The translations under genes were made by a program, and so were the position numbers. The notes below the pieces were generated by a model that ran no database searches, was not told the origin of the DNA, and saw only the letters and a program-made list of their open reading frames with translations. Positions 1,644 to 60,496 of a DNA stretch of 64,000 nucleotides are shown in pieces; position 1 is the first letter of the stretch; the number at the start of each line of letters is the position of its first letter. This DNA comes from Octopus vulgaris (lineage: Eukaryota). The stretch covers positions 81,468,001-81,532,000 of the forward strand of contig OX597817.1 in assembly GCA_951406725.2 (NCBI GenBank), given 5' to 3'.

Positions 1644-25944
<24,301 letters not shown>

Positions 25945-26414
25945 TGGCCGCGGTGTTGCAGCCCCCCTTGTGGCAGGAACAGTAGGCTTGAAACAAGAAA
26001 GCAGAGGATACAACTAACTACCAGTGTACAAGGCTGCAGTGTCTGACCGGCGGAGAGAACCACAAACCACTCGACGATGATGACGTCTGCTGCACATAAG
26101 TGTCGCAAGTGTACTGGAGGTGGTGGAGGAGGAGGAGGGTGATGGTTGTGCAGTGAGTTAAGGACAGGGAGGTGCATGGCTACTAGTGCTGCAGGTTTGC
26201 TTGTTGCAGCTGTGTCTGATGTTGGGAGCTGCTGGTGCTGTCATCGTAGTGGTGGCAGCTGTGAAGGGTCTGTTGATACTTGTGAGCAAAAAAAAGAGCA
26301 TGCAAGCAAAACAACTCCTTATGCCTCCCCCACCCCCCAAGCGAGAATGAGCTGACAGAAAAAGCAACTGTGTGTCATAGCAACATAACAGGTTGGCAAA
26401 CCAGGCTGATAGTT

Positions 26415-26541
26415 GTAAGTATATACTCATAGAAAATGTCTAAGGTTTTTTATTTTTTTCTAAAAAGTCAAATCAGAAAAAAATTCGTCTAGAAATTTTT
26501 CATGATTTAATTTTTTAATTCCTTCATTTTCTATGATTCAG
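26415..26541 (+). other. Predicted 127-nt intron in the UPF1 3' UTR
   Basis: GTAAGT at 26415; AT-rich body between GC-richer flanks; T-rich tract ending TTCAG at 26541. Confidence 0.6.
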
Positions 26542-27584
26542 AAGGAAATAACAAATTTGCTCTGAGGAATATTTATGTTGGGCCTTAAATGCCTGGCTCA
26601 TAATGGGGCATCTTACTGTAATTGCTGCGAATCGGCTGGAGTTACCGAGTTGTGTGTGGCCACAGCTCCTAAATTACTACTCTCCATTCCCTCCTGCCGA
26701 CCAACTTCATTCACTTACTCCCTGTCGCTGTCACTGCCTGTCAGTCTCACTTGCTGTTTGACTACAGGCAGAACACACACTCTCTCACACACACACATGC
26801 ACACATACACACTTTTACCTTAGAAGCTGAAGACACAGACAGCAGACACTGCCCTAATCTGGATTCATGGCATATTTGAATTAAGACATCATCTGGCTTG
26901 AAATAATTGGGAAAATAAAAAATTTAAAAAAAAAAAAAGAAAATAAAGGAAAAAAAAAAGAAAAAATTAATTGGGAACTATCCTAAATTTGAAACCTCCA
27001 ATGCCACATGTAGGCAGACAGTGCAACTGTGCAGTACAGGACCTGTTAATATCCTGGACATAGCGCTTATTGGGGAGACCAGTTTTGATTCATATTTTTT
27101 TTCATTCTCCTTTAACAACTCCCATTTATTTTTTTTTAGTCTGTCTAAAATAGATATATTTTACTTTAGTTTTAATTTGAAATAATATTTTTAATATTTT
27201 ATATTATTTTTATTTACCCTTTCCCCAATATACTTCTCCATTTTAATCACACACATACACTTAGTTCTTTTTTTGCTGCTTCTAATTTTGGGTGTTCAGG
27301 CACGTTAAACTTTGAAATTCCCTAGTGAAACAAAATAATTTTCTTTATTCTATTGGCTGATGGAACAGCATCAACTTCCCTTTAGCTTCTGAATTTTGTT
27401 TGCTGCCTGAATCAATTGACACTTTCCTTACCATTTCTCAGTATAAAGGGCTTCACATTACTTGTTACTGGAAAAAAAAAAAACTTGTATTTGCTAAAAG
27501 CCATTTTGTCCAGCTTTTTTTTATATATTAAAAAAGAAAGTCCCCCATTACACATTTTAACTTTTGTACAATTTTGAAATAGGT

Positions 27585-27616
<32 letters not shown>

Positions 27617-28367
27617 ACACTGGCACTTTCACAGTGTTTTAACTATCGCTCCTTAATACCTATGTGTCTTTTAATATGGCCCAGACATGTAGGTTTTACT
27701 TCAGTTTGAATTAGTTTTTTTTTTTTTTTTTTTTTTGTGAGATGGGGTAGGTGGGTAGAATAAAAACAACCAGCAAATTATGTCTAAATTGTTTGTAACT
27801 AGGGTGCACTTTTCAGTGGATTTTAATAAGTATAGCTTTGTTTTGGATCTGTATTACATTTTGATTGTTATTAAGTGAAAAAGAAAATTATAAAAATGTT
27901 GTCTTTATTTCTCTAACAACCTTTTCTTTCTTAACTTTCCATTTGGATTATGTTGTACTTGAAAAAGTTTTACAAGTTGTTCAAACCATTTTTTTCTTTT
28001 CCCGACTTGAGCAGCTTTTATTAGGATTAAATTTGTATAGATTTCGTTTCCATCAATATTCCATATATGACAATTATTATTAATCTTGATTGATTCTTTA
28101 TTTTAAATGAGAAAGAAAACATGTTCTATTATTAATTACAAAGCTTCCTTTCATTGCTTTAAGCTGTTCTTTTCAGCTTTGAAACTTGTAGCATAGTGTT
28201 TCCCTCCTTCCTACTGGATGTCTTAAGTAGTTCAGATTGAACCTATTGTTAAGTTATTAGTTGCGAGTCTTTTCAGCAGACTTCTTGCTAATTGTAGTCA
28301 GTAGAAAACTTTGCTATGGGGATTTAAAAGGAATTGTGCTTTTACAGTGTTGTGCTGTTTTAACGTC

Positions 28368-28373
28368 AATAAA
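28368..28373 (+). terminator. Candidate UPF1 polyadenylation signal AATAAA
   Basis: AATAAA followed by GT/T-rich sequence, at the end of a ~2.4-kb nearly TE-free stretch. Earlier AATAAA motifs also exist. Confidence 0.5.
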
Positions 28374-31080
28374 AGTTTTGAAATGAATGTTTTCTAGGTT
28401 ATTGTTTGCATGCTTTTTTTTTACATTTTTATCTCAGCACAAGCATGACTGTGTGGTTAAAAAGTTCACTTCTGAACTGTATGGTTTTGGATTTAGTCCC
28501 ACTGTGTGGCACTTTGGGCAAGCTCCAGGCTAACCAAAGCTTTGTGAGTGCATTTGGCAGATAAAAACTGTGTGTGTGTTTCCTTGTCTCAACATTGCAT
28601 GATAGTTATGAGTGTCACTATCATACTGGGAGTGCCATTCAGTTTCAATATTTTGCAAAAGCATCTCTGGGCACCAGAAAACATTATCTTGCTTGGAAAA
28701 GTGTGAGGACTGGTAACAGGAAGGGCATCCTAGCCATAGAAAATCTGCAATAAATGGACTGATCAACGTAAGCATGAGATAGCAGATGTTAAAATGATAG
28801 TTCATCTTTGACCCTTCAGTATTCAGATTACTCTGTCAAATGTAATGCTTATTTATTCACATTGTTTTGAATTGATCATGTATTATCTTGCAGCTTTAGG
28901 GTTTCAATGATGTGATTTGTTTACTTTTAGAATTACATTGTAGAGTAGATACAAAAGGCAGTATCTGGCTGGTTTAAGTATAAAACAGAATATTTGGGCC
29001 AGATATGGTAAAGGGTTAAAAACACTATTTAATATCTGCTAGTTATAAAGCTTTCATGACTGATTTTAAGAACATGTAATTTAAGTTCCGTTATATGTTA
29101 AGGTCAATATTTTAATGACCAGTGTCTAGTATATTTGTAGAGTGAAAGATATAAATCATTGTTTTTCAGAAGTTCAAATCCTGCTGAGAACCAATTTCTC
29201 TTTGGCCCTTTTGAGTTCGATAAAATATATTGCAATCAAGCACTGGAGTCAGTTAAATTGACTAAACATCTCCAACCAAAATCTGTGGCCTTGTACCAAT
29301 ATTTTTGATTGATCAGTTACTATTTTTCAATAATTTAAATCAACACCTTAATTTGCTTCAGTGAGTGTTAGACTCTACTTTCGCAGATTTAAATGTTGGG
29401 GAATATTTGAAATATTGTGTGCAGTCTCCCAGTTGAAAAACATCATGCTTGCAACAACAACAACAAAAAAAAATTGCTTGTGACATTGTAGAATGCTGTC
29501 CAACCAGTAAAATAAATAAACAGAAATACACCTCATCACTTACAAAAAGAACCATGCCATGTGTCTACATTGTCAGTATGGTTTCTACAAAAGTTTTCAG
29601 CCCTTCAAATACTGATTTTTATTTCTTACAATTGTAATTGTTTAAGTGGAAATTTAGATGGGCTAGCATGGCTCTACGGTTAAGAAGATTGCATACCAAC
29701 TAAGTGATCTTGTGTTCAGTTCCACTATATGTCACCTTGTGAAAGTGTTGTCTACTAAAGCTCTGGATCAACCAAAGCCTTACATATGGATTTGATGAGT
29801 GGAAACTGAAAGGAGCCTATCATTTATTTATGTATATGAGTGCCAATATTATAAAAGTTATATCATTCATTTCCAACCTTCCAGGAAAACATGTCTAACC
29901 ATGGGGGAAATATTACCTTACTTGGAAACAAGCAAGGATTGAGAACAAAATTAGCCTTTGGCTGTAGAAAATCCATGACAAGTTCTAATTCATACAAGCA
30001 TGGAAAAGTGGATTTTAGAACATGCTCACATTATAACCTGGAATATTTAATGCAATGCCATGATTTTAATATAAAATAAGCACTTGCCTAATAGCCTCAA
30101 TATTTTCTTAGTTCACTCCCCACCTCCTAATGCTGAATTAATCAACATGATATCCATAACAAGGTTATGTTTTGATTAGAGCTTTCTTTAAGACAGTTCC
30201 TCCGAAATTATTCAAACAAATTCCATTTCATTTGTGTAACCAAGTCACCACTTGAAACAAAAAAGCATGTAGATGTGTATTACACTGCTTTCTAGCTACT
30301 AAAAATTGGTGCAGGTAAACTACTAGCCTACATCCCTACAATCCAATTTTTTTTTTTTTTTTTTTTTACTATTGGACCCTGTATTCTTGTGTAAAAACAT
30401 TTAACTTTTTTGTTATATTTCTTATTAGAATATACTGCTTTTGTTTTAATGAATTTAGTAAAATAACTTTGCTATGTTAAGCTGATGCATAGAACCAATA
30501 AGCATAAAATTGTTGAAAAGCATTAACATAGATCACTTTAAGCCATGGTATTTAATAGAACTGGTTACAGTCTCAGGGCAGATTGGTATTGAAGGGGTTA
30601 ACATCCAACCACCTAGCTTTTGGGTGTCTTCAGCAGAGTCCACGCTGTTCTAAGCATTAAGACCAGGATAACTTTTCCCTCTTGTCTCGGGGGCCCTCCA
30701 GAAGGTCACCAGCACTACCATCATGACTTAGAAAACTTATTTTTATGGTTGACTAATTTAGATGTGGTGTAAATTCCTATTCATAAATTCTTTAATTTTG
30801 AACAAAGTATATAAAGCTATAAATATGTAAATCTTGACTTAAGACATTTGGATAAAAAAAAAAAATAATCAAAGGCTGACTGCAGGACTCAAAATTTTCT
30901 GAAATGGATTGAGAAATTGGAAAGATTTTGGTACAATGATAGAAAATCTGTCATGTTTACAGATGTGGGTTCTTGTCTTACAGGTAACCTTCTACTTTTT
31001 CTATCCAAACAGGCTTTTTAACCTAATATTTACACACTATTTCTAGCTTTTTGTGCTTTGAGTTCCACTGTTAAAATTCT

Positions 31081-31668: not shown

Positions 31669-34600
31669 CTGGAAAAGGAAAAACAATTGTTTATGAAAAC
31701 TTAAGATAAATATTTGGGCATGTCTGGAAATTGTTATATACTGTTTAACCAAGTATCTGTTCTATAATAGCAGTGGTTCTCAACCATTTTTGGCCTATGA
31801 ACCTCACTGATTCTTATTTTACTCTACTGGACCCTTGTTAAAAAACATAAAAAAAAAGGTTATATTCTTATAGTTAATTAAGAATTTTTTTTTGTGTGTC
31901 AATCATTTGACTGCAGCCATGCTAAGATACTGCCTTAAAAGGTTTTTGTCAAAGAAATTGGTCCCAGGACTTGTTCTTTGTAAGCTTAGTACTTTATTGG
32001 TATCTTTTGCTGAACCACTAAGTTACAGGGACATAAACACACCAACATTGGTTTTCAAGTGATAGTGGAAAGACAAATGATAACACAGACACAAATACAT
32101 GCAGTGGGACTGTGTGGTTGAGAGGGTTCAGTTTCACTGTGTGGCACCTTGGGCAAGTATTTTATACTATAGCCTCAGGCTGATCAAAGCCTTGTGAGTG
32201 GATTTGGTTGACTGAAACTGAAAGAAGCCCGTCGTATATATGTTTGTGTGCCTGTATTTGTTCCCCCAACATCGCTTGACAACCGATGCTGGTGTGTTTA
32301 CGTCCCCTGTAACTTAGCAGTTCGGCAAAAAGAGACCGATAGAATAAGTACCAGGCTTACAAAGAATAAGTCCTGGGGTCGATTTGCTCGACTGAAGGTG
32401 GTGCTCCAGCATGGCCACAGTCAAATGACTGAAACAAATAAAAGAGTATACTTTTTCTGTAGAAGTGTAACAAAATTATTGCTCATAAACTTTAACAATA
32501 TCTTATATGGACCCTGGTTGAGAACCACTGTATTTACAGTTAGACATGTACAAAACTGGAAACTATTCTTTCGTATATTGTTTTAATCAACTGCTAAATG
32601 CAGTTTGATAGATTGAGGGGGAAAAAATGATGATGACCTTGATGAACTTGTCGGAAAGTTAAGAGGGGGCAGAAAGCAGGCATATAAAGTAAAAGTCAGC
32701 AATGAAGACGAGAAGTAGATGCACAGAATAGTGAACATTATGGTTCAAAGAAGGAGTAGTGATGGCAAATTTTGGCAAGCAATGAATTTTTGAAAGATTC
32801 AGTATCTTAACAGCTAACAACATTTCTAATAGAATTTAATCCAGTGATTTAAATAACTTCTATATCACAGCCATTCTGCTTTCATATTATTTATAGCTAC
32901 TGGTTTTTTTTTTAATTAAAAGAAAATGTTATTAACTATAAATGAATTTAATTTATTGTAGATAAATAAAACTAGCAGCAACTATAGAGAAGTTAGTTGT
33001 CTTTGTTGCTAAGAATGGCATGAAGAATAATTGCATTGTTTTCTACTCAGTAAAAAGTGTGTAAACATTTAATGTTCGTCTGGCATGTGTTTGATGGTTT
33101 GACAATCTTATGAGCCAAAGGACTGCATTGAGCTATGGTTGGATGCTCTTCCTAATACCACCTGCTTTACAGTGTTACTGGGTGCTTTTTCATGGCATTG
33201 GTAAGGTGAGCAAATAGCTCAAAAGACAAGGTTCCCAAACTGAGGTGTGAGTGCAGTAGTACTAAGGGGAGGTGCTTTGTGCCAGGTGTTGAGAGGTGGT
33301 AGTTTGTTAAGGACTAAAGAAGAGATACATGGCTACCTCAGCTGGAAAGAGAAAAAAGATGGTGTTAGGATGTACACTCAAGGTACTAGAAAGAGAATTG
33401 GAAAAGGTAAGTGCACAAGTGTGCAAAAGAGTGACAAGTGGTTAGAGATGGGGACAGAGATAAATGCAGTGAAAGTGTGGTCACTGGTGAATCTCAGGTT
33501 GTGGGAGGGGTTATAAAGTGAAGGATATATGGCAGTGGGTCAAGGAGGAGGTGATAAGTGACAGTAAAAAAGACAACAGCAACTGTATAATAAAACTTAA
33601 AAATAAGGAGATGATGATAAATGTCAGTGGAAAGAATGAGAGATGAACAAAATGGAGAGAGGACATTGAAGACGTGTGTAATGTTATTCAGATTGCAGTA
33701 ATCATGGAAGAAATTGCTTAACCCTTTAGCATTCAGATTACTCTGTCACATGTAATGTATATTTATTCACATTTATTTTGAATTAATTATACATTATCTT
33801 ATAGCATCAACATTTCAATGATGTGATTGGTATTTTTAGGACATTGTAAGGTAAATGTGAGAGGCCAGATATGATCAGTTTAAATTATAAAGGGTTTAAG
33901 ACAAGTATTTGTTATGCAAGAAGATACAGTTTCTGCTGGGTAAAAATCAGCAAATGACACCACTTTCCAGTTAGCTGCACATTTTACTAAAATCTTTATC
34001 ATTATTCTGCTGTTCATGGCTGGAATGCAACTGTTTTAACCCTTTGCCTGTCCAAAGCATTTTCAAAAGTTTGTCTTAAATGTCCTTGCTTGTTTTCAGA
34101 CTTTTAGATAGCCTTTGTTTCATATGTTCTGAATATTATAAAGCTTCCTTTTCATAAGTCCCAAGATATTCTGCTGGTCGAAAAAAGAATTAGGAGTGTG
34201 CATCATATATGATGCATGGACGCTAAGGAAATGTTTGTTGTGCGTCATATGATACATGGGACAGGTAAAGGCTCTGTTATCTTTTCGGTAATATAAAAAG
34301 TGAAGATCTACGAGGGGCGTTCAATAAGTAATGCCCCTGACCCACTTCCCATAGCAGTAGAGCAACGAAACTTGGCACAGCTATTAGTCTTTTTCTACAT
34401 AGGAACCACCCAGAGTTACGCATTTCTCCCATTGCTTGATGCAGCTCTGGAGACCGTTTTTGAAGACCCCAACCTGAACGTGACTTCAGAAATCAAGGCT
34501 GCATCATCTGGGAAACGCTTTCCTTTCAAAAACAACTTCATGACTGGGAAGAGGTGAAAATCAGAGGGTGCAAGGTCAGGAAAGTAGGGGGGATGGGGGA

Positions 34601-37600
34601 GGAGTTCATAGCCATATGCCTGTGCTTCTGATCTGACGACAAGCGAGTTGTGGACCGGAGCGTTGTCCTGCAGGAGGAGGATGCCTTTGCTGATCTTGCC
34701 CTGCCTCTTGATTTTGATAGCTTCTCTTAATTTCCTCAAAAGTGAAGCATAATAGGCTCCTGCAATTGTGGTACCCTTTGCCAGGAAATCTATCATCACT
34801 ACTCCGTCCTGGTCCCAGAAGACTGTGAGCATGACCTTGCCTTCTTTGGAGGGGGTGAGTCACGGTGTTTCCACTGCATTGACTGGGCTTTGGTCTCTGG
34901 ATCATCGTGATGGACCCAGGTTTCATCCTGTGTAATCAGTCTTTTGAAAAATTTTGACTCATCTTGGCACATCTCCAAATTCACCCTCGAGCACTCGACA
35001 TGTTCTTGCTTCTGGAAAGGCGTGAGCAACCTGGGAATCCATCTGGCAGACACCTTTTGCATATGCAAATGGTCATGAATGATAGTTTCCACAGACCCGG
35101 TACTAATCTTGACCTCATGGGCTATTTGGCGAATAGTTATGCGTCGATCTTCCAAAATGGCAGCCTCAACTTGACAGACAGATGCCTCATCAATGGCAGA
35201 AGGGGCGACCAGATCTGGGAGCTGTTTCCACAGAGTTCCAACCATGTTTGAATTCACGATGCCAGCGTTTTACAAGGTCATATGATGGGGCATCATCACC
35301 ATAAGTTACTTTCATTTCATCAAAAGTCTCCCGTGGTGTGCGTCCTTTCAAATACAAAAACCGGATCACTGCTCGACACTCAACAGGCTCCATTTCACAC
35401 TTGACTCAGTTCAAACACCTGTAAATCAGAAACCACAATTAATTCAGAGCTGTAATTTGTCACTTACTCTATAGAGATATAAATGATTGCACATGCAAAA
35501 TTTCAGCTAGATCAAACAACTGCAAGTGGGTCAGAGGCATTACTTATTGAATGGCCCTCGTAACTTCCTGGGTCATTTAGTTTGGAAGTTTCCAACAAAA
35601 AAAGGAAAAAAATTTTATCCGCTTTTCCATGCATGCATGGATCAGATAAAATTTGTTGAAGTAGCTTTTCTACAGTTGGAAGCCTTTTCTTTTGCCAACC
35701 CTCACCTATTTCAAAGTCAAGTAATATTTCCTTATGGTTAAGCAAGTTTTCATAGTATGTTTCAAATGAAGGACACCACTTATATGCTGATGATACAGAC
35801 ACATGTTAGTGGATTTGGTGTATGGAAATTGCACATAAACTATTTTGTGTGGGTGTGTATATATATATATATAATAAAATACAAAATGGGACAAGAACGC
35901 AAAACATCCAGATAGACAACACAGACAGGTCATTCAAAGCCTTTTATCTTCAGTCAAGAACTGGATCATCCTCGCAATTTCAACTGATTAATCTTGAGAA
36001 TGCTCCAATCTGGCCAGCCCCACGGAAAAACTAAGCTAAGAGCATTAGATTCCTTGGAAAAAGCAACGAATGTATACGAAACAAGGACGGAAAAACAGAT
36101 GATGTTACACGAATATAAATAAAAAAAACAATAATAATAGTAACAACAGGCGCCTTTCGACTGGGGACGAATTGAATTCTGCTGGCGTGTATGGGAATTA
36201 AGCCTTACGGCAAAGGGAAGTATATCGACATGGCAGTGACCACAGTCAAATGCTAAAGGGCTAGCAGTCGGCCAACGGTCACGTGAGAAGAGAAGAGAGA
36301 GAGAAAAAGAGGAATTAAGGAGGGGAGAAGAGAGAGAGAGTGTGTGTAGAAGTAGTTAGACTGAAGAATCAAGGAGTGCAAAGTAAGAAAGACAAAGAAA
36401 TGTGAGAGTAGGGAGAAAGATTTGAAAAAGTCGGACAAAATTTAGTGAAATGTGTACTTACATATAAGAGGACAAGGTGTACGTACGCTGCTATATATAT
36501 ATATATATATATACATAAAATAAAATACAAAATGGGACAAGAATACAAAACATCCAGAGAGACAATACAAAAAAACACGGACGGGTCATTCGAAGCCTTT
36601 TATTTTCAGTCAAGATATATATATAGATAGATAGATATATATATATAATATATTCAAGGTGGCGTGCTGGCAGAAATGTTAGCATACCGGGTGAAATGCT
36701 TGGCAGTATTTCGTCTGTCTTTATGTTCTGAGTTCAAATTTCGCCAAGGTCAACTTTGCCTTTTATCCTTCTGGGGTCAATTAAATAAGTGCTAGTTATG
36801 CACTGGGGTCAATGTAATCAACTTAATTCCTATGTTTAGCCCCCTGTGGGCAATAAAGGTAAATATATATATATGTGCATGGCTGTGTGGTAAGTAGCTT
36901 GCTGCTCAACCACATGGTTCTGTATTCAGTCCACTGCATAAAAACTTTGACAAGTGTCTTCAACTATAGCTTTAGGGTGATCAAAGCCTTGTGACTGGAT
37001 TTGGTTGATGGAAACTGAAAGAAGCTTGTTGTACATGTATACATATCTACGTATGTATGTCTGTGTTCGTTCCTCACCACCACTTGACAACTGCTGTTGG
37101 TATGTTTATGCCCACGTAACTTAGCCGTTTGGCAAGAGACCAATAGAATAAGTACTAGACTTAAAAAAAAAGTTCTGGGGTTGATTCATTTGACTAACAC
37201 CCTTCAAGGCAGTGCCTCAGTATGGCTGCAGTCAAGTAACTGAAACAAGTAAAAGATGTATACAATACTCGTCTTACAGTTGCTGTGTTTTGAATCTATT
37301 CACAAGGCTTTGGTCGGTCAGGAGCTATAATAGCAGACACCTATGGTGACACACAGCGAGACTGAACCTGAACTTCTATGGCTAGGAGGTCAAAGTACTG
37401 AGGTGTCACAAAGTCTTTCTCCACTGGTGAGCCACATTTTATGAACATGCATCATCAAAGGGAGGAGGTGTTCAGTCAACAAAAAGCAACAGCAATCGGA
37501 TATTCACATTCAAATCTGCCAGGATGTATTAAGATACATTTATTTTTTTGTATTTTCACTGTTACTGCATGCACGTCATGAATTATTATTAGATAAATAC

Positions 37601-55795: not shown

Positions 55796-58433
55796 CACAC
55801 ACACACACAGTATACCAAAAATGCATACACACTCAATTTTCATTTCTTTTTAGATTTAACCCATTAGAAATATTGGGTTCAAATTTTGGCACAAAGCCAG
55901 CAAGTTTGAGGGAGTGGGGCAGGATCAGTCAATTACATCGACCCTGGTGCTCGACTGGTACTTATTTTATCAACCCCAAATGGATGAAAGGAAAAGTCAG
56001 CCTCAACAGAATTTGAACGTAAAGACAGATGAAAAGCTGCTAAGCATTTTGCCTGGTATGCTTATGATTCTGCCAGCTTGCCACCTTACTCATTAAAAAT
56101 ATTGAAGGAAACCAGACTAAGCTTTGAACAAAGAAAAAATTTATCCTAAAGTTCTACTGAAAGTTGAATATGCAGTCAAAGTGCAAAATCAGTTTAGAAG
56201 GGAGTTTCAAACAGAGCCATAAATATAATTTATCATCACTCAAATTGGAGATAAATTTGAAGCAGATGGAACTGTTCAGAATGTCCACAAGAAACATTCT
56301 AGAAGATTATGGATATCGACGAGCCCTACAAAGCAAGAAAGGGTACTAGAAATACAGAGCCAGAGGTCAAAAAAATCTTTATAATAAGTGCAGATAACAC
56401 TCGCTCAAGGTGCTGTATGAGTGATTGAACCTGAAATCACATAGTTGAAGAGCCAATGTCTTAACCACACAACCAAGCTTGCACCTATACATCATTTAAA
56501 TTACTTGAGCATTTAAATTACTCAGTCATATGTAATGCTTATTTATTCACATTGTTTTGAATTAATCATATATTATCTTATAGGTTCAAGATTATGATAA
56601 TGTGATTGTTTATTTTTAGATTGACATAGTAAGGTAAGTGTAAGAGGCCTGATCTGGTTGGTTTGAACATAAAACTGGTAGAATATTTTGGTTAGATATG
56701 GCTGGTTTAAATGTTAGAGGTTAACCCTTTAGCATTCAGATTACACTGTCAAATGTAATGTTTATTTATTCACATTTTGATTAATCATGCATTGTCTCAT
56801 AACTTTGAGACTTCAATGTTGTGATTGTTTTATATTTAGAATGGCATTGTAGGATAAGTGTGAGAGACCTGATCTGGCTTGCTTAAACATGAAACTAGTA
56901 GAACATTTTGATCAGAAATGGCTTGTTTAAATGTTAAAAGATTAAAAGTTGCAATACTTTGGATATCTTGATCTTAACTAGCAAACTGTGTCCATTTATG
57001 GGATTGAATTATCAAAATCAAAAGACCTTCTTGTAAAAACAATTCAAAACAGTTCCCCCATTATCATCACTTGTGTCCCTTACTCTATGCTGGTATTGGT
57101 TGGATGGTTCAACAGGAACAAACAAGCTAGAGAGCAGTGCCAAGCTCCACTATCTGCCTGCTTTGGCATAGTTTCCACAGCTGATTCCCTTCCTAACATC
57201 AATCACTTCACAGAGGGTACTGAGTGCTTTTTGTAGCAAAATTTAATTAAATTGGTAGATAAAAATACATGAACAATAAGAAAAATGAACTGTACTTTCA
57301 TATCTGCAATTGATTCCACTTTAGCATGGCCTTTAGACTTCTTTTGAAATTCTTCCATAAGTTGTTTTATGTTGTTGCCAATTTCTCCAAAGTTCATGTA
57401 CAAATTCTGAAAAACGAAGATATTAATTTAGATGAAATGAAATTACTGAACAACAACAATAGTAAATAATACAGATCAGATGGAAATAGTGGTAACACAC
57501 ACACAAACACGTGTGTGTGTTACCACATATATCCACATATACACACACACACACACACTTATTCGCTTTCTCTTTCTCACTCCATTTTGCTCAATAGCCA
57601 CTTTTATGGTCATTCTCTCACAAACCAGCCATCTCAATATGAACACACCATTCCCATTTCTGCCAAAATATTGCCTGGATATTTATGCTATGAACACACT
57701 ACTCATACTTTGCTGTAATACTATCTGGATTTACCTTGGATTTTACCTAAGGATATATGAACTAACATCCATACCCTCTGAAAAATTAACTGTGAACTCT
57801 ATTTCCTTATTTCCTTACTCTCTACTCTTCCATAAAAAAGATAACAATGGCACTCTTCTTTTTTTGCTTCTATATGACCTGGAGGAGTAACCTCAATCCT
57901 ATAAATATTACCAAAATGAAGTGGATTGACAAGTTTATTTTTTGAACCTGTGGAAGACACACAAGATGTCGAAATATCATTCACTTGATAACAATGGCAA
58001 TCTTCTTCTTTTGCTTCTAATAATGATAATAATAATAAAGAGGAATATAAAGGAAATCAGAATGGAGTGCCCAGTACAACTGTTACAAAAGGTTTGCTTC
58101 CTTTGCACCATCAGAATAATCAGGAAAGTATTAGATAGTTGAAAAGAACAGATAGCATGGTACTGTAGGCTACAGGCAGCAAGCTTGCTATACATGCAAA
58201 ACTCTAGGAGTTCCAACAAAATCTGAGTTAATAAATAATAATAGTAATCCTTTCTAATTTGGGGACAGGGCCAGGAATTTTGAAGGGAGGAAGTAAGTCA
58301 GTTACATTGCCCTCAATCCTTAACTAGTACTTATTCTATCTACCTTGAAAGGGTGAAAGACCAAGTCAGCCTCAGAGGAAAATGCCATGAAGCATTTTGT
58401 TTGGTGTATTAACAATTTTGCCAGTTCACTCGC

Positions 58434-58477
<44 letters not shown>

Positions 58478-60496
58478 GCCGTAACTGAAGACAGCCACAG
58501 AAAGAAGAAAGGCCTCAGTATGGCCTGGATTGACTACAAAAAGGCGTTTGATAGCATCCCCCACACATGGATCCTCGAAACACTAGCCATTAACAAAGTA
58601 GCACCAACAATCATAAAATTCATAGAGCACTCTATGAATAAATGGCAAACAGTCCTACACCTCCAAACAAAAGAGGGACTCATGAAAACCAAAGACATCC
58701 CCATTAGAAGAGGAATATTCCAGGGAGACACGCTCTCTCCACTCCTTTTCTGCTTGGCACTGTCACCTCTATCTGATATGCTAAATAGAACTGGATGCGG
58801 ATATAAATGTTACGGCAAAACGATCAGCCACCTTTTATATATGGATGACCTAAAACTATACGCTGCAAATGACAAACAGCTGGAAACACTATTAAAGACA
58901 GTTCATGGATTTACCAAAGAAATAGATATGAAATTTGGATTAGAAAAATGCGCCAAAGTAACCATGAAAAGAGGAAAACTAGTTAAGAGTAACAACATCA
59001 CATTAGATAAAACCAATGAAATAAAAGAATTAGACCAAAGCCAAACTTACAAATACTTAGGAATCCATGAACTAGATAAGACACAACACACACAAATGAA
59101 AGAGAAAATAAAAAAAGAATATTATAGACGAGTTAGATCAATACTAAAAACAGAGCTCAATGCTAAAAACAAGATAATAGGTATCAACACTTTAGCTGTC
59201 CCAGTTATAAGTTACAGCTACAATATCCTTAACTGGACACGAAATGAACTGTCCAAAATAGATAGGAAAACAAGAAAAATACTGACAGGATCTAGGATGC
59301 ATCACCCAAAATCTGACATAGAAAGACTATATATACAACGTATAGAAGGTGGTAGAGGCCTTATACAGCTGGAAAACTACTATAAAATAACCGCCATAGG
59401 ACTGCAAAAATATCTACTTCAGAAGGAAGGAAAACTGATCCAGCAGCAAAACACGAGCAAAACAAAAAACTGTTCTCAGTATTTAAGGAAGCTGACAAAT
59501 ACAAACAAGAAATCATACCACCTAATAAACATGAAGAAGAAGAAGAAGATGATGAAGAAACAACAAAAGCTATAAAACAAATGAAATCCAAACTAAAAAT
59601 AGAACAGCAACGAACCATGATAAAACGATGGCAAGAAAAACCCCTTCATGGTAAATACTGCACTAAACTAAACGCAAAAGAAATAGACAAAGAAAAATCC
59701 CAGCAATGGTTGAGAAGCTCAGTACTCAAAGCAGAAACAGAGGGATTTTTAATTGCAGCACAAGACCAAAGCCTCCCCACCAGAAATTACCAAAAACATG
59801 TAATGAAAAGAAATATTACAAGTAACTGCAGAATATGTGGAGATGGACAAGAAACAATAAATCATATTATCTCTAGCTGCCCAGTCCTGGCTAAGAAGGA
59901 ATATATTCACAGACATGACAGAGTTGGAACCTACATACATTGGAAGCTATGCCAACATTATGGAATAACAACAGAAAAAAGATGGTATAGGCACACACCA
60001 GAAAAGGTCACAGAAAACGAGAAAGCAACCATACTCTGGGATATGCCGATACACACAGATAGAGAAATTAAGCCCAACAGACCAGATATAGTTGTCAGAG
60101 ATCATGAAGAAAAAAATGCTTTCTAATTGATGTATCAATACCGGCAGATGACAACGTGTCTCTAAAAGAAATGGAGAAACTCTCAAAATACAAAGACCTG
60201 GAAATAGAGGTAACTAGAATGTGGAATCTGAAAACAGAAACAATTCCTATCATAGTAGGTGCATTAGGCATGATAAAAAAATATTCAGACAAATACATAA
60301 CAAAAACACCAGGACTTACAAACACATATAACATACAGAAAATTGCACTACTAGGCACTGCACACATCCTACGCAGAACACTTTCCATACAATAACCATC
60401 AGAGCATCACAGCACATACCCAAGGCACACAGAGCTGCGCTCGGTAGTGAAGTGAAAGCACGCTATAAAAATAGAACTACTGAATAATAATAATAA

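Follow-up and report, generated by a model that had tools for sequence, protein, structure and literature searches.

A candidate intron 470 nt past the stop codon of Octopus vulgaris UPF1 and its possible part in feedback regulation

The principle that NMD factors limit their own mRNAs is established in plants, fungi and mammals, according to the accounts cited below. Whether NMD needs exon junctions in organisms other than vertebrates, plants and some fungi is described as unsettled, with conflicting results in flies and many lineages uncharacterised (PMC6173133), and among the matches listed in our search of titles and abstract openings, which covered few subscription journals, there was no paper on junction-dependent NMD in molluscs. 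A short AT-rich block far past the stop codon of UPF1 in Octopus vulgaris raises two questions in this respect, namely whether it is a spliced intron and, if so, whether the junction that it leaves turns the mRNA of the core NMD helicase into a target of NMD. A short intron so far past the UPF1 stop would be a cheap and direct test of the junction rule in a mollusc. Both the intron and the feedback had been proposed in a first-pass annotation of the window, by which we mean the whole stretch of 64,000 nt that was analysed and to which all coordinates refer.

The UPF1 gene and the candidate intron

The coding region of UPF1 in the window (1644..25944, + strand) comprises 18 exons and 17 GT-AG introns and encodes 852 aa followed by the stop; about 278 N-terminal aa lie outside the window. 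The assignment of the gene to UPF1 was borne out by Pfam matches in its frame (UPF1_1B_dom and AAA_12, the 1B and helicase domains), by an SQ-rich C-terminus and by high identity to named UPF1 proteins, the best of which, among the matches listed, are those of molluscs at about 88% (Liolophura 730/831, Mizuhopecten 728/827 and Haliotis 734/832). Identity to P0001, a protein of 1130 aa from another species, reaches 812/849. The frame ends at a TAG (25942..25944, +) preceded by ...SQLSQGPFH, and the terminus SQLSQGPFN was found in 8 of 10 named mollusc UPF1s, with a one-residue difference in the other two (19 of the 120 matches listed). Because the end of the frame matches the mollusc C-terminus, we regard this stop as genuine, and the distance of 470 nt from stop to junction that had been given for the locus holds. 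The last coding exon and the proximal 3′ UTR (25825..26414, +) would form an internal exon of 590 nt if the intron is spliced. A coding terminal exon was considered as an alternative and rejected: the stop coincides with the mollusc C-terminus, Pfam matched none of three UTR ORFs, and the + strand frames across the junction stay open for at most 50 codons and lack an ATG.

Several other features of the gene were observed. A 36-nt micro-exon (19658-19693, +) lies in the variable C-terminal region; its skipping keeps the frame, and it is a candidate alternative exon. The intron at 4306-7983 holds decayed LTR-retrotransposon-like remnants at about 5700-7450 (+), with RNase H- and integrase-like fragments recognised by eye, and the divergent exon at 21926-22102 gave no match when used as a search query. 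Readthrough or A-to-I editing at the UPF1 stop would add 34 residues, and the stop region (25939-25949) can pair with 26178-26188 in an 11-bp duplex, a weak prediction that appeared in one of three folds. A known structured RNA in the post-stop region was rejected, the best Rfam match (E 0.78) being far below the cut-off.

The candidate U2-type intron (26415..26541, +) is 127 nt long, begins with GTAAGT and ends with TTCAG. The AT-rich body described between GC-richer UTR blocks was found at exactly the coordinates given earlier, with a GC content of 0.21; the 470 nt between stop and donor have 0.52 and the 350 nt beyond the block 0.45. Its candidate 5′ splice site, GTT/GTAAGTAT (26415..26422, +), offers eight contiguous pairs to U1 and has a weak exon side; what had been called a perfect GTAAGT donor is perfect on the intron side, but the exon side, GTT, is non-consensus. 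The same 8-mer occurs twice on the + strand of the window, at the candidate donor and at the true donor at 10371. Two TTAAT motifs (26507..26519, +; A at 26510 and 26518) resemble branch points, and a motif of this kind lies 12-55 nt from the intron end in 10 of the 17 true introns. The pyrimidine tract and tandem acceptor (26512..26544, +) include a CAG at 26539-41 (score 11.5) followed by an AAG at 26542-44 (score 7.1), in agreement with the T-rich tract and CAGAAG tandem reported before. The pyrimidine fraction is 0.78 (0.59-0.81 in the true UPF1 introns), the AG-free zone before the acceptor measures 49 nt (19-87 in the true introns), and the GC content compares with 0.21-0.31 in the short true introns. 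The two short coding introns to which the candidate had been likened in size were both recovered, at 123 nt (17312-17434) and 133 nt (22107-22239); in length, GC, T-tract and AG-free zone, the candidate falls inside the ranges of the 17 true UPF1 introns.

Taken together with the shuffle tests, the transcript extent and the post-stop intron of vertebrate UPF1, all described below, this anatomy makes it likely that 26415-26541 is a spliced U2-type intron. The first half of the original proposal, a probable intron, is upheld to that degree, and the second half, the feedback, stays a prediction.

A possible distal junction and proposed feedback on UPF1

Between stop and donor lies a GC-rich spacer (25945..26414, +; 470 nt, GC 0.52). 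No other stretch of this length in the window has so high a GC content (median 0.349, 99th percentile 0.483), and the coding region stands at 0.44. The spacer carries GCTG and GGA runs and holds 10 GCTG motifs versus 1.7 expected at the window rate. We propose that 26415-26541 is removed from at least part of the UPF1 transcripts, which would run to about 28390, and that splicing would deposit an exon junction complex some 445 nt downstream of the stop, beyond the reach of the terminating ribosome. This complex, together with a GC-rich spacer that may load UPF1 and a 3′ UTR some 2.3 kb long, would make the UPF1 mRNA an NMD substrate, in which case its level should go up when NMD falls and down when NMD is strong. 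Since the donor is modest, splicing may well be incomplete, and transcripts that retain the intron would then be the more stable form. Given splicing, we lean slightly towards the junction as the driver of feedback. The reading as a whole, in which a real intron leaves a distal junction that renders the UPF1 mRNA an NMD substrate, is our best explanation and a tentative one; junction-driven self-regulation of UPF1 is plausible, at somewhat less than an even chance.

Feedback through 3′ UTR introns has been reported for plant SMG7 and Barentsz (PMC3711448). The octopus locus shares two features of that type: the gene encodes an NMD factor and, if the intron is spliced, its junction lies 470 nt past the true stop, beyond 50-55 nt, where an intron could serve as a sensor of junction-dependent NMD as it does in SMG7 and Barentsz (PMC3711448). 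The plant loops were established with reporters and mutants and by the conservation of the introns (32 of 35 SMG7 and 38 of 42 Barentsz mRNAs; PMC3711448); the octopus candidate, a prediction from sequence, differs in concerning the core helicase, a mollusc and a single intron rather than a proximal-distal pair. If the inferred steps hold, the candidate would work like the SMG7/Barentsz loop.

In vertebrates, UPF1 has an intron 3 nt past the stop in human, mouse and zebrafish, according to the S3 table of PMC7310861 (transcripts ENST00000262803, ENST00000599848, ENSMUST00000075666 and ENSDART00000162582), where the distance is 3 in five of the six UPF1 rows and the sixth is a two-exon human fragment at 126. 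The gene is the same, and in both cases the intron follows the last coding exon and leads to a non-coding terminal exon; however, the vertebrate intron at +3 falls within the classically NMD-immune zone, in contrast to the octopus candidate at 470 nt. The vertebrate intron raises the prior that a post-stop UPF1 intron is real. By exon order, the candidate stands where the stop+3 intron stands in vertebrates. It may therefore be that very intron, moved downstream as the GC-rich block grew, and the vertebrate case suggests displacement rather than invention. A vertebrate-like donor beside the octopus stop was considered and rejected, the sites at 25944 and 25953 scoring -4.3 and -0.9.

Feedback on mammalian UPF1 is attributed mainly to its long 3′ UTR and, to our knowledge, the principal mammalian UPF1 transcript has no distal 3′ UTR intron. 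The likeness to the octopus proposal is that the UPF1 mRNA is itself an NMD target: a review describes the mammalian mRNA as such a target, regulated by the UPF3B- and EJC-dependent branches (PMC8082775), and feedback on mammalian NMD factors including UPF1 is credited to Huang 2011 and Yepiskoposyan 2011, as cited in PMC8082775 and PMC3962487. NMD and termination factors of Neurospora likewise self-regulate through 3′ UTR features, with the difference that the intron route is reported for eRF1 and not for upf-1, which relies on uORFs and a long UTR (PMC10578600). Since UPF1 mRNA has already been reported as its own NMD target in mammals and Neurospora, any novelty in the octopus would lie in how far the intron is from the stop and not in the loop. 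Among the matches listed from the octopus, cephalopod and mollusc literature on UPF1 and NMD (titles and abstract openings, few subscription journals), there was no account of the intron, and it is not described in the titles and abstract openings of the literature on the UPF1 gene, UTR introns and feedback; genome annotations may already show it. PMC3854533 provided background only.

Whether a junction at this distance would be regulatory can be judged against reports from other animals. Human NMD targets were best predicted by the presence of a 3′ UTR intron over 50 nt beyond the stop, the UTRs of targets are GC-rich and UPF1 binding prefers GC-rich UTRs (PMC5238794). In HCT116 cells, true 3′ UTR introns at any distance, including beyond 55 nt, were not NMD-sensitising as a class, and one of them protected its mRNA (10.1101/2024.01.10.575007). 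The response of distal 3′ UTR introns is variable in zebrafish (PMC7310861), and evidence on the junction complex in fly NMD is mixed (PMC6173133); as tabulated for flies, a 3′ UTR intron was present in 14 of 154 direct NMD targets and 256 of 5289 non-targets (P 0.47), the direct targets being marked by UTR length, not introns (PMC3962487).

It is possible, if on the unlikely side, that the octopus intron is spliced and its junction is not regulatory, so that it would be an inherited terminal intron and feedback would either come from the long, GC-rich UTR, with no part for the junction complex, or be absent. The spacer, as the GC-richest stretch of the window, could help either the junction or a route based on length and GC, and the UPF1 3′ UTR would measure about 2.3-2.4 kb, compared with a median of 350-380 nt in octopus (PMC9699675). 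Intronless NMD targets are marked by GC-rich, long UTRs (PMC5238794), and Arabidopsis UPF3 feedback works through UTR length, not through the intron 19 nt past its stop (PMC4417159); the fly targets and Neurospora upf-1 mentioned above fit the same route. However, 470 nt is squarely within the NMD-enhancing range wherever junction-dependent NMD works, and an essential gene would presumably pay a price for keeping such a junction if it were neither tolerated nor put to use.

If the intron is real and conserved, it would show that feedback on the core helicase can arise when an old intron is moved beyond the 50-nt limit; if it is spliced but neutral, this would count as evidence against a junction rule for molluscs. 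A more speculative and quite improbable extension is that the displaced +3 intron, with its GC-rich and UPF1-loading spacer, acts as a splice-or-retain switch for the UPF1 level, perhaps with a 21-bp helix, described below, that links the switch to the choice of 3′ end. On that reading, the locus would be an endogenous reporter of junction-dependent NMD in a spiralian.

Splice sites, composition and chance

The block could also be a pseudo-intron, that is, an AT-rich part of a continuous UTR exon with chance or rarely used sites, any splicing of which would be noise cleared by NMD; we consider this unlikely. Site strength was scored with local matrices built from only 24 donors and 26 acceptors, of which a convergent Sec1-family gene contributed 7 donors and 8 acceptors. 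As these matrices are small and overrate GTTT donors, donors were also judged by their pairing with U1, which does not depend on the matrices. The candidate donor beats 3 of the 24 true donors in the simple matrix, 8 in the conditional matrix and 11 by U1 duplex energy (-7.3 kcal/mol, with 142 of 7011 GT sites equally strong), and of the 11 sites tested in its exon none pairs more strongly with U1. It is mid-to-weak because of its non-consensus exon side, a weakness that would suit a pseudo-intron. G stands at +5 in 7 of the 8 true donors without G at -1, and likewise in the candidate donor, which fits the usual -1/+5 compensation. Two GT sites upstream, at 26195 and 26392, outscore it in the local matrices, and CAG/GTTGGC at 26392 is a possible second donor. 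The candidate CAG acceptor is as strong as the true acceptors of the window: it lies above 13 of the 26 in leave-one-out scoring, and 40 of 7518 AG sites in the window score at least as high.

Sites of this kind recur elsewhere, as a pseudo-intron would have it. GTAAGT occurs 15 times on the + strand of the window and 18 times on the - strand, with only 3 true donors; the UTR has other AT-rich blocks at 26912-72 and 27083-27216 and other acceptor-like sites scoring 10-15 at 27139, 27741 and 28437; and splicing would require an internal exon of 590 nt, the largest coding exon here being 381 nt. However, the placement of the two sites argues for an intron. When three composition segments were shuffled separately in 5000 trials, donor and acceptor both fell at the block edges once with GTAAGT, 17-27 times with GTRAG and 14-16 times by U1 energy, and correction for four or five AT-rich UTR blocks leaves a chance of at most about 1-3%. 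Among 48 GTRAG-acceptor pairs (60-300 nt, both strands), compared at thresholds set after the candidate had been seen, the candidate alone has flanks that both exceed it in GC by 0.15 or more, and the other AT blocks gave no + strand GTRAG-acceptor pair with such an exon-intron-exon profile. A looser donor pattern yielded five pairs at three acceptors, namely the candidate, one true acceptor and a - strand TA microsatellite.

By splice-site scores alone, the candidate pair is not outstanding. It ranks 61 among the 5237 pairs that use no true site, or 17 when composition is added; among all 5511 pairs it ranks 125, the four true short introns, which belong to the training set, ranking 1, 6, 7 and 19, and with composition added it ranks 38 versus 5, 7, 14 and 29 for those four. 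Change-point fits placed the 5′ composition break at 26409-26413, matching the donor, and the best 3′ break at 26558-26579, 17-38 nt past the acceptor, with a 90% interval that includes 26541. Because such fits missed one end of the four true short introns by 20-194 nt, the offset of the 3′ break counts little.

A search with the antisense frame over the candidate donor gave five matches. P0122 (a 164-residue ORF, E 1.9e-22) is homologous and was the only related sequence that the searches gave; two others, P0124 and P0126, proved on inspection to be unrelated repeats, while P0123 (24 matched stretches) and P0125 (8) are probably low-complexity. P0122 matches the window from 26430 to 25944 and differs by a longer A run near 26288 (26288-26295) and one substitution (about 26242). 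As it begins inside the candidate intron, its source was unspliced at the donor, which is in line with a pseudo-intron; if this source is genomic it says nothing on splicing, and if it is RNA it shows retention. The donor region is kept in P0122, and with about two differences in about 490 nt the two sequences are too close to inform on conservation. An ORF query downstream of the intron, meant to reveal a spliced junction, gave no match, which is a weak test. A spliced intron at 26415-26541 is the reading that we carry forward.

Extent of the UPF1 transcript

On indirect signs, the UPF1 transcript probably runs through 26415-26541. No AATAAA or ATTAAA lies between the UPF1 stop and 26914, and none of the 14 hexamers tested lies near 26400, AAGAAA at 25995 and AACAAA at 26550 being the only ones before 26914. 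The best poly(A) signal candidate, an AATAAA at 28368..28373 (+), has the most U-rich downstream element; alternatives are found at 26914/26942 in an A-rich tract and at 27527, 27759 and 28026. The putative terminal exon (distal 3′ UTR, 26542..28395, +, with an inferred end) is free of dispersed repeats, and its GC-rich first 350 nt form a unique block, just 3% of equal-sized windows being as GC-rich. Repeats cover 23% of the window, and the first dispersed repeat after UPF1 starts at 28446; the longest stretch without window-shared repeats, 24621-28445 (3825 nt), ends just past the AATAAA at 28368, which is suggestive only, because the next-longest stretches include single-copy transposon remnants. 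P0001, from another species, lies on a 6262-nt contig, which leaves room for a UTR of up to 2.9 kb. The poly(A) signal and the repeat distribution favour a transcript end near 28390.

It is highly improbable that the mRNA ends at or before about 26430-26450, with the AT-rich block as a U-rich post-cleavage zone and no junction after the stop: a drop in GC is expected past a 3′ end, a UTR of 470-500 nt would be near the octopus median and 29% of octopus cleavage sites are reported without a canonical signal or variants (PMC9699675 and its supplement), but hexamers are missing near 26400 among the 14 tested, a second unique GC-rich block follows, the repeat-free stretch continues to 28445 and, indirectly, the P0001 contig would accommodate the longer UTR.

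The tract at 26912-26972, which is 79% A and includes two AATAAA, is a likely internal-priming site that could yield false oligo-dT 3′ ends; it can pair with a T run at 27709-27738. An opposite-strand feature at the candidate was considered and rejected, as the convergent Sec1-family gene (63297-31593, - strand), which we take to be VPS45-like, stops some 5 kb away, at about 31593, and has poly(A) signals by 31491. Eight exons of this gene were located, and at least one between 60925 and 55208 may be missing. Elsewhere in the window, a long GAA repeat comes after a non-LTR reverse transcriptase ORF (RVT_1, E 3e-22) at 58391-60400 (+), and a DNA-transposase-like remnant, presumably of the mariner type, with a weak HTH match lies at 34300-35500 (-).

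Positions 26289-26309 can form 21 contiguous pairs with 28402-28422 (+; 5 G-C and 2 G-U, -25.6 kcal/mol), linking the proximal UTR to the U-rich element just past the AATAAA at 28368. A comparable helix was found in none of 300 local shuffles and in 2 of 25 real 2.5-kb tiles, both in repeats, a significance that is overstated because shuffles break homopolymer runs. Such a helix could tie the choice of 3′ end to the spacer or serve as a substrate for editing.
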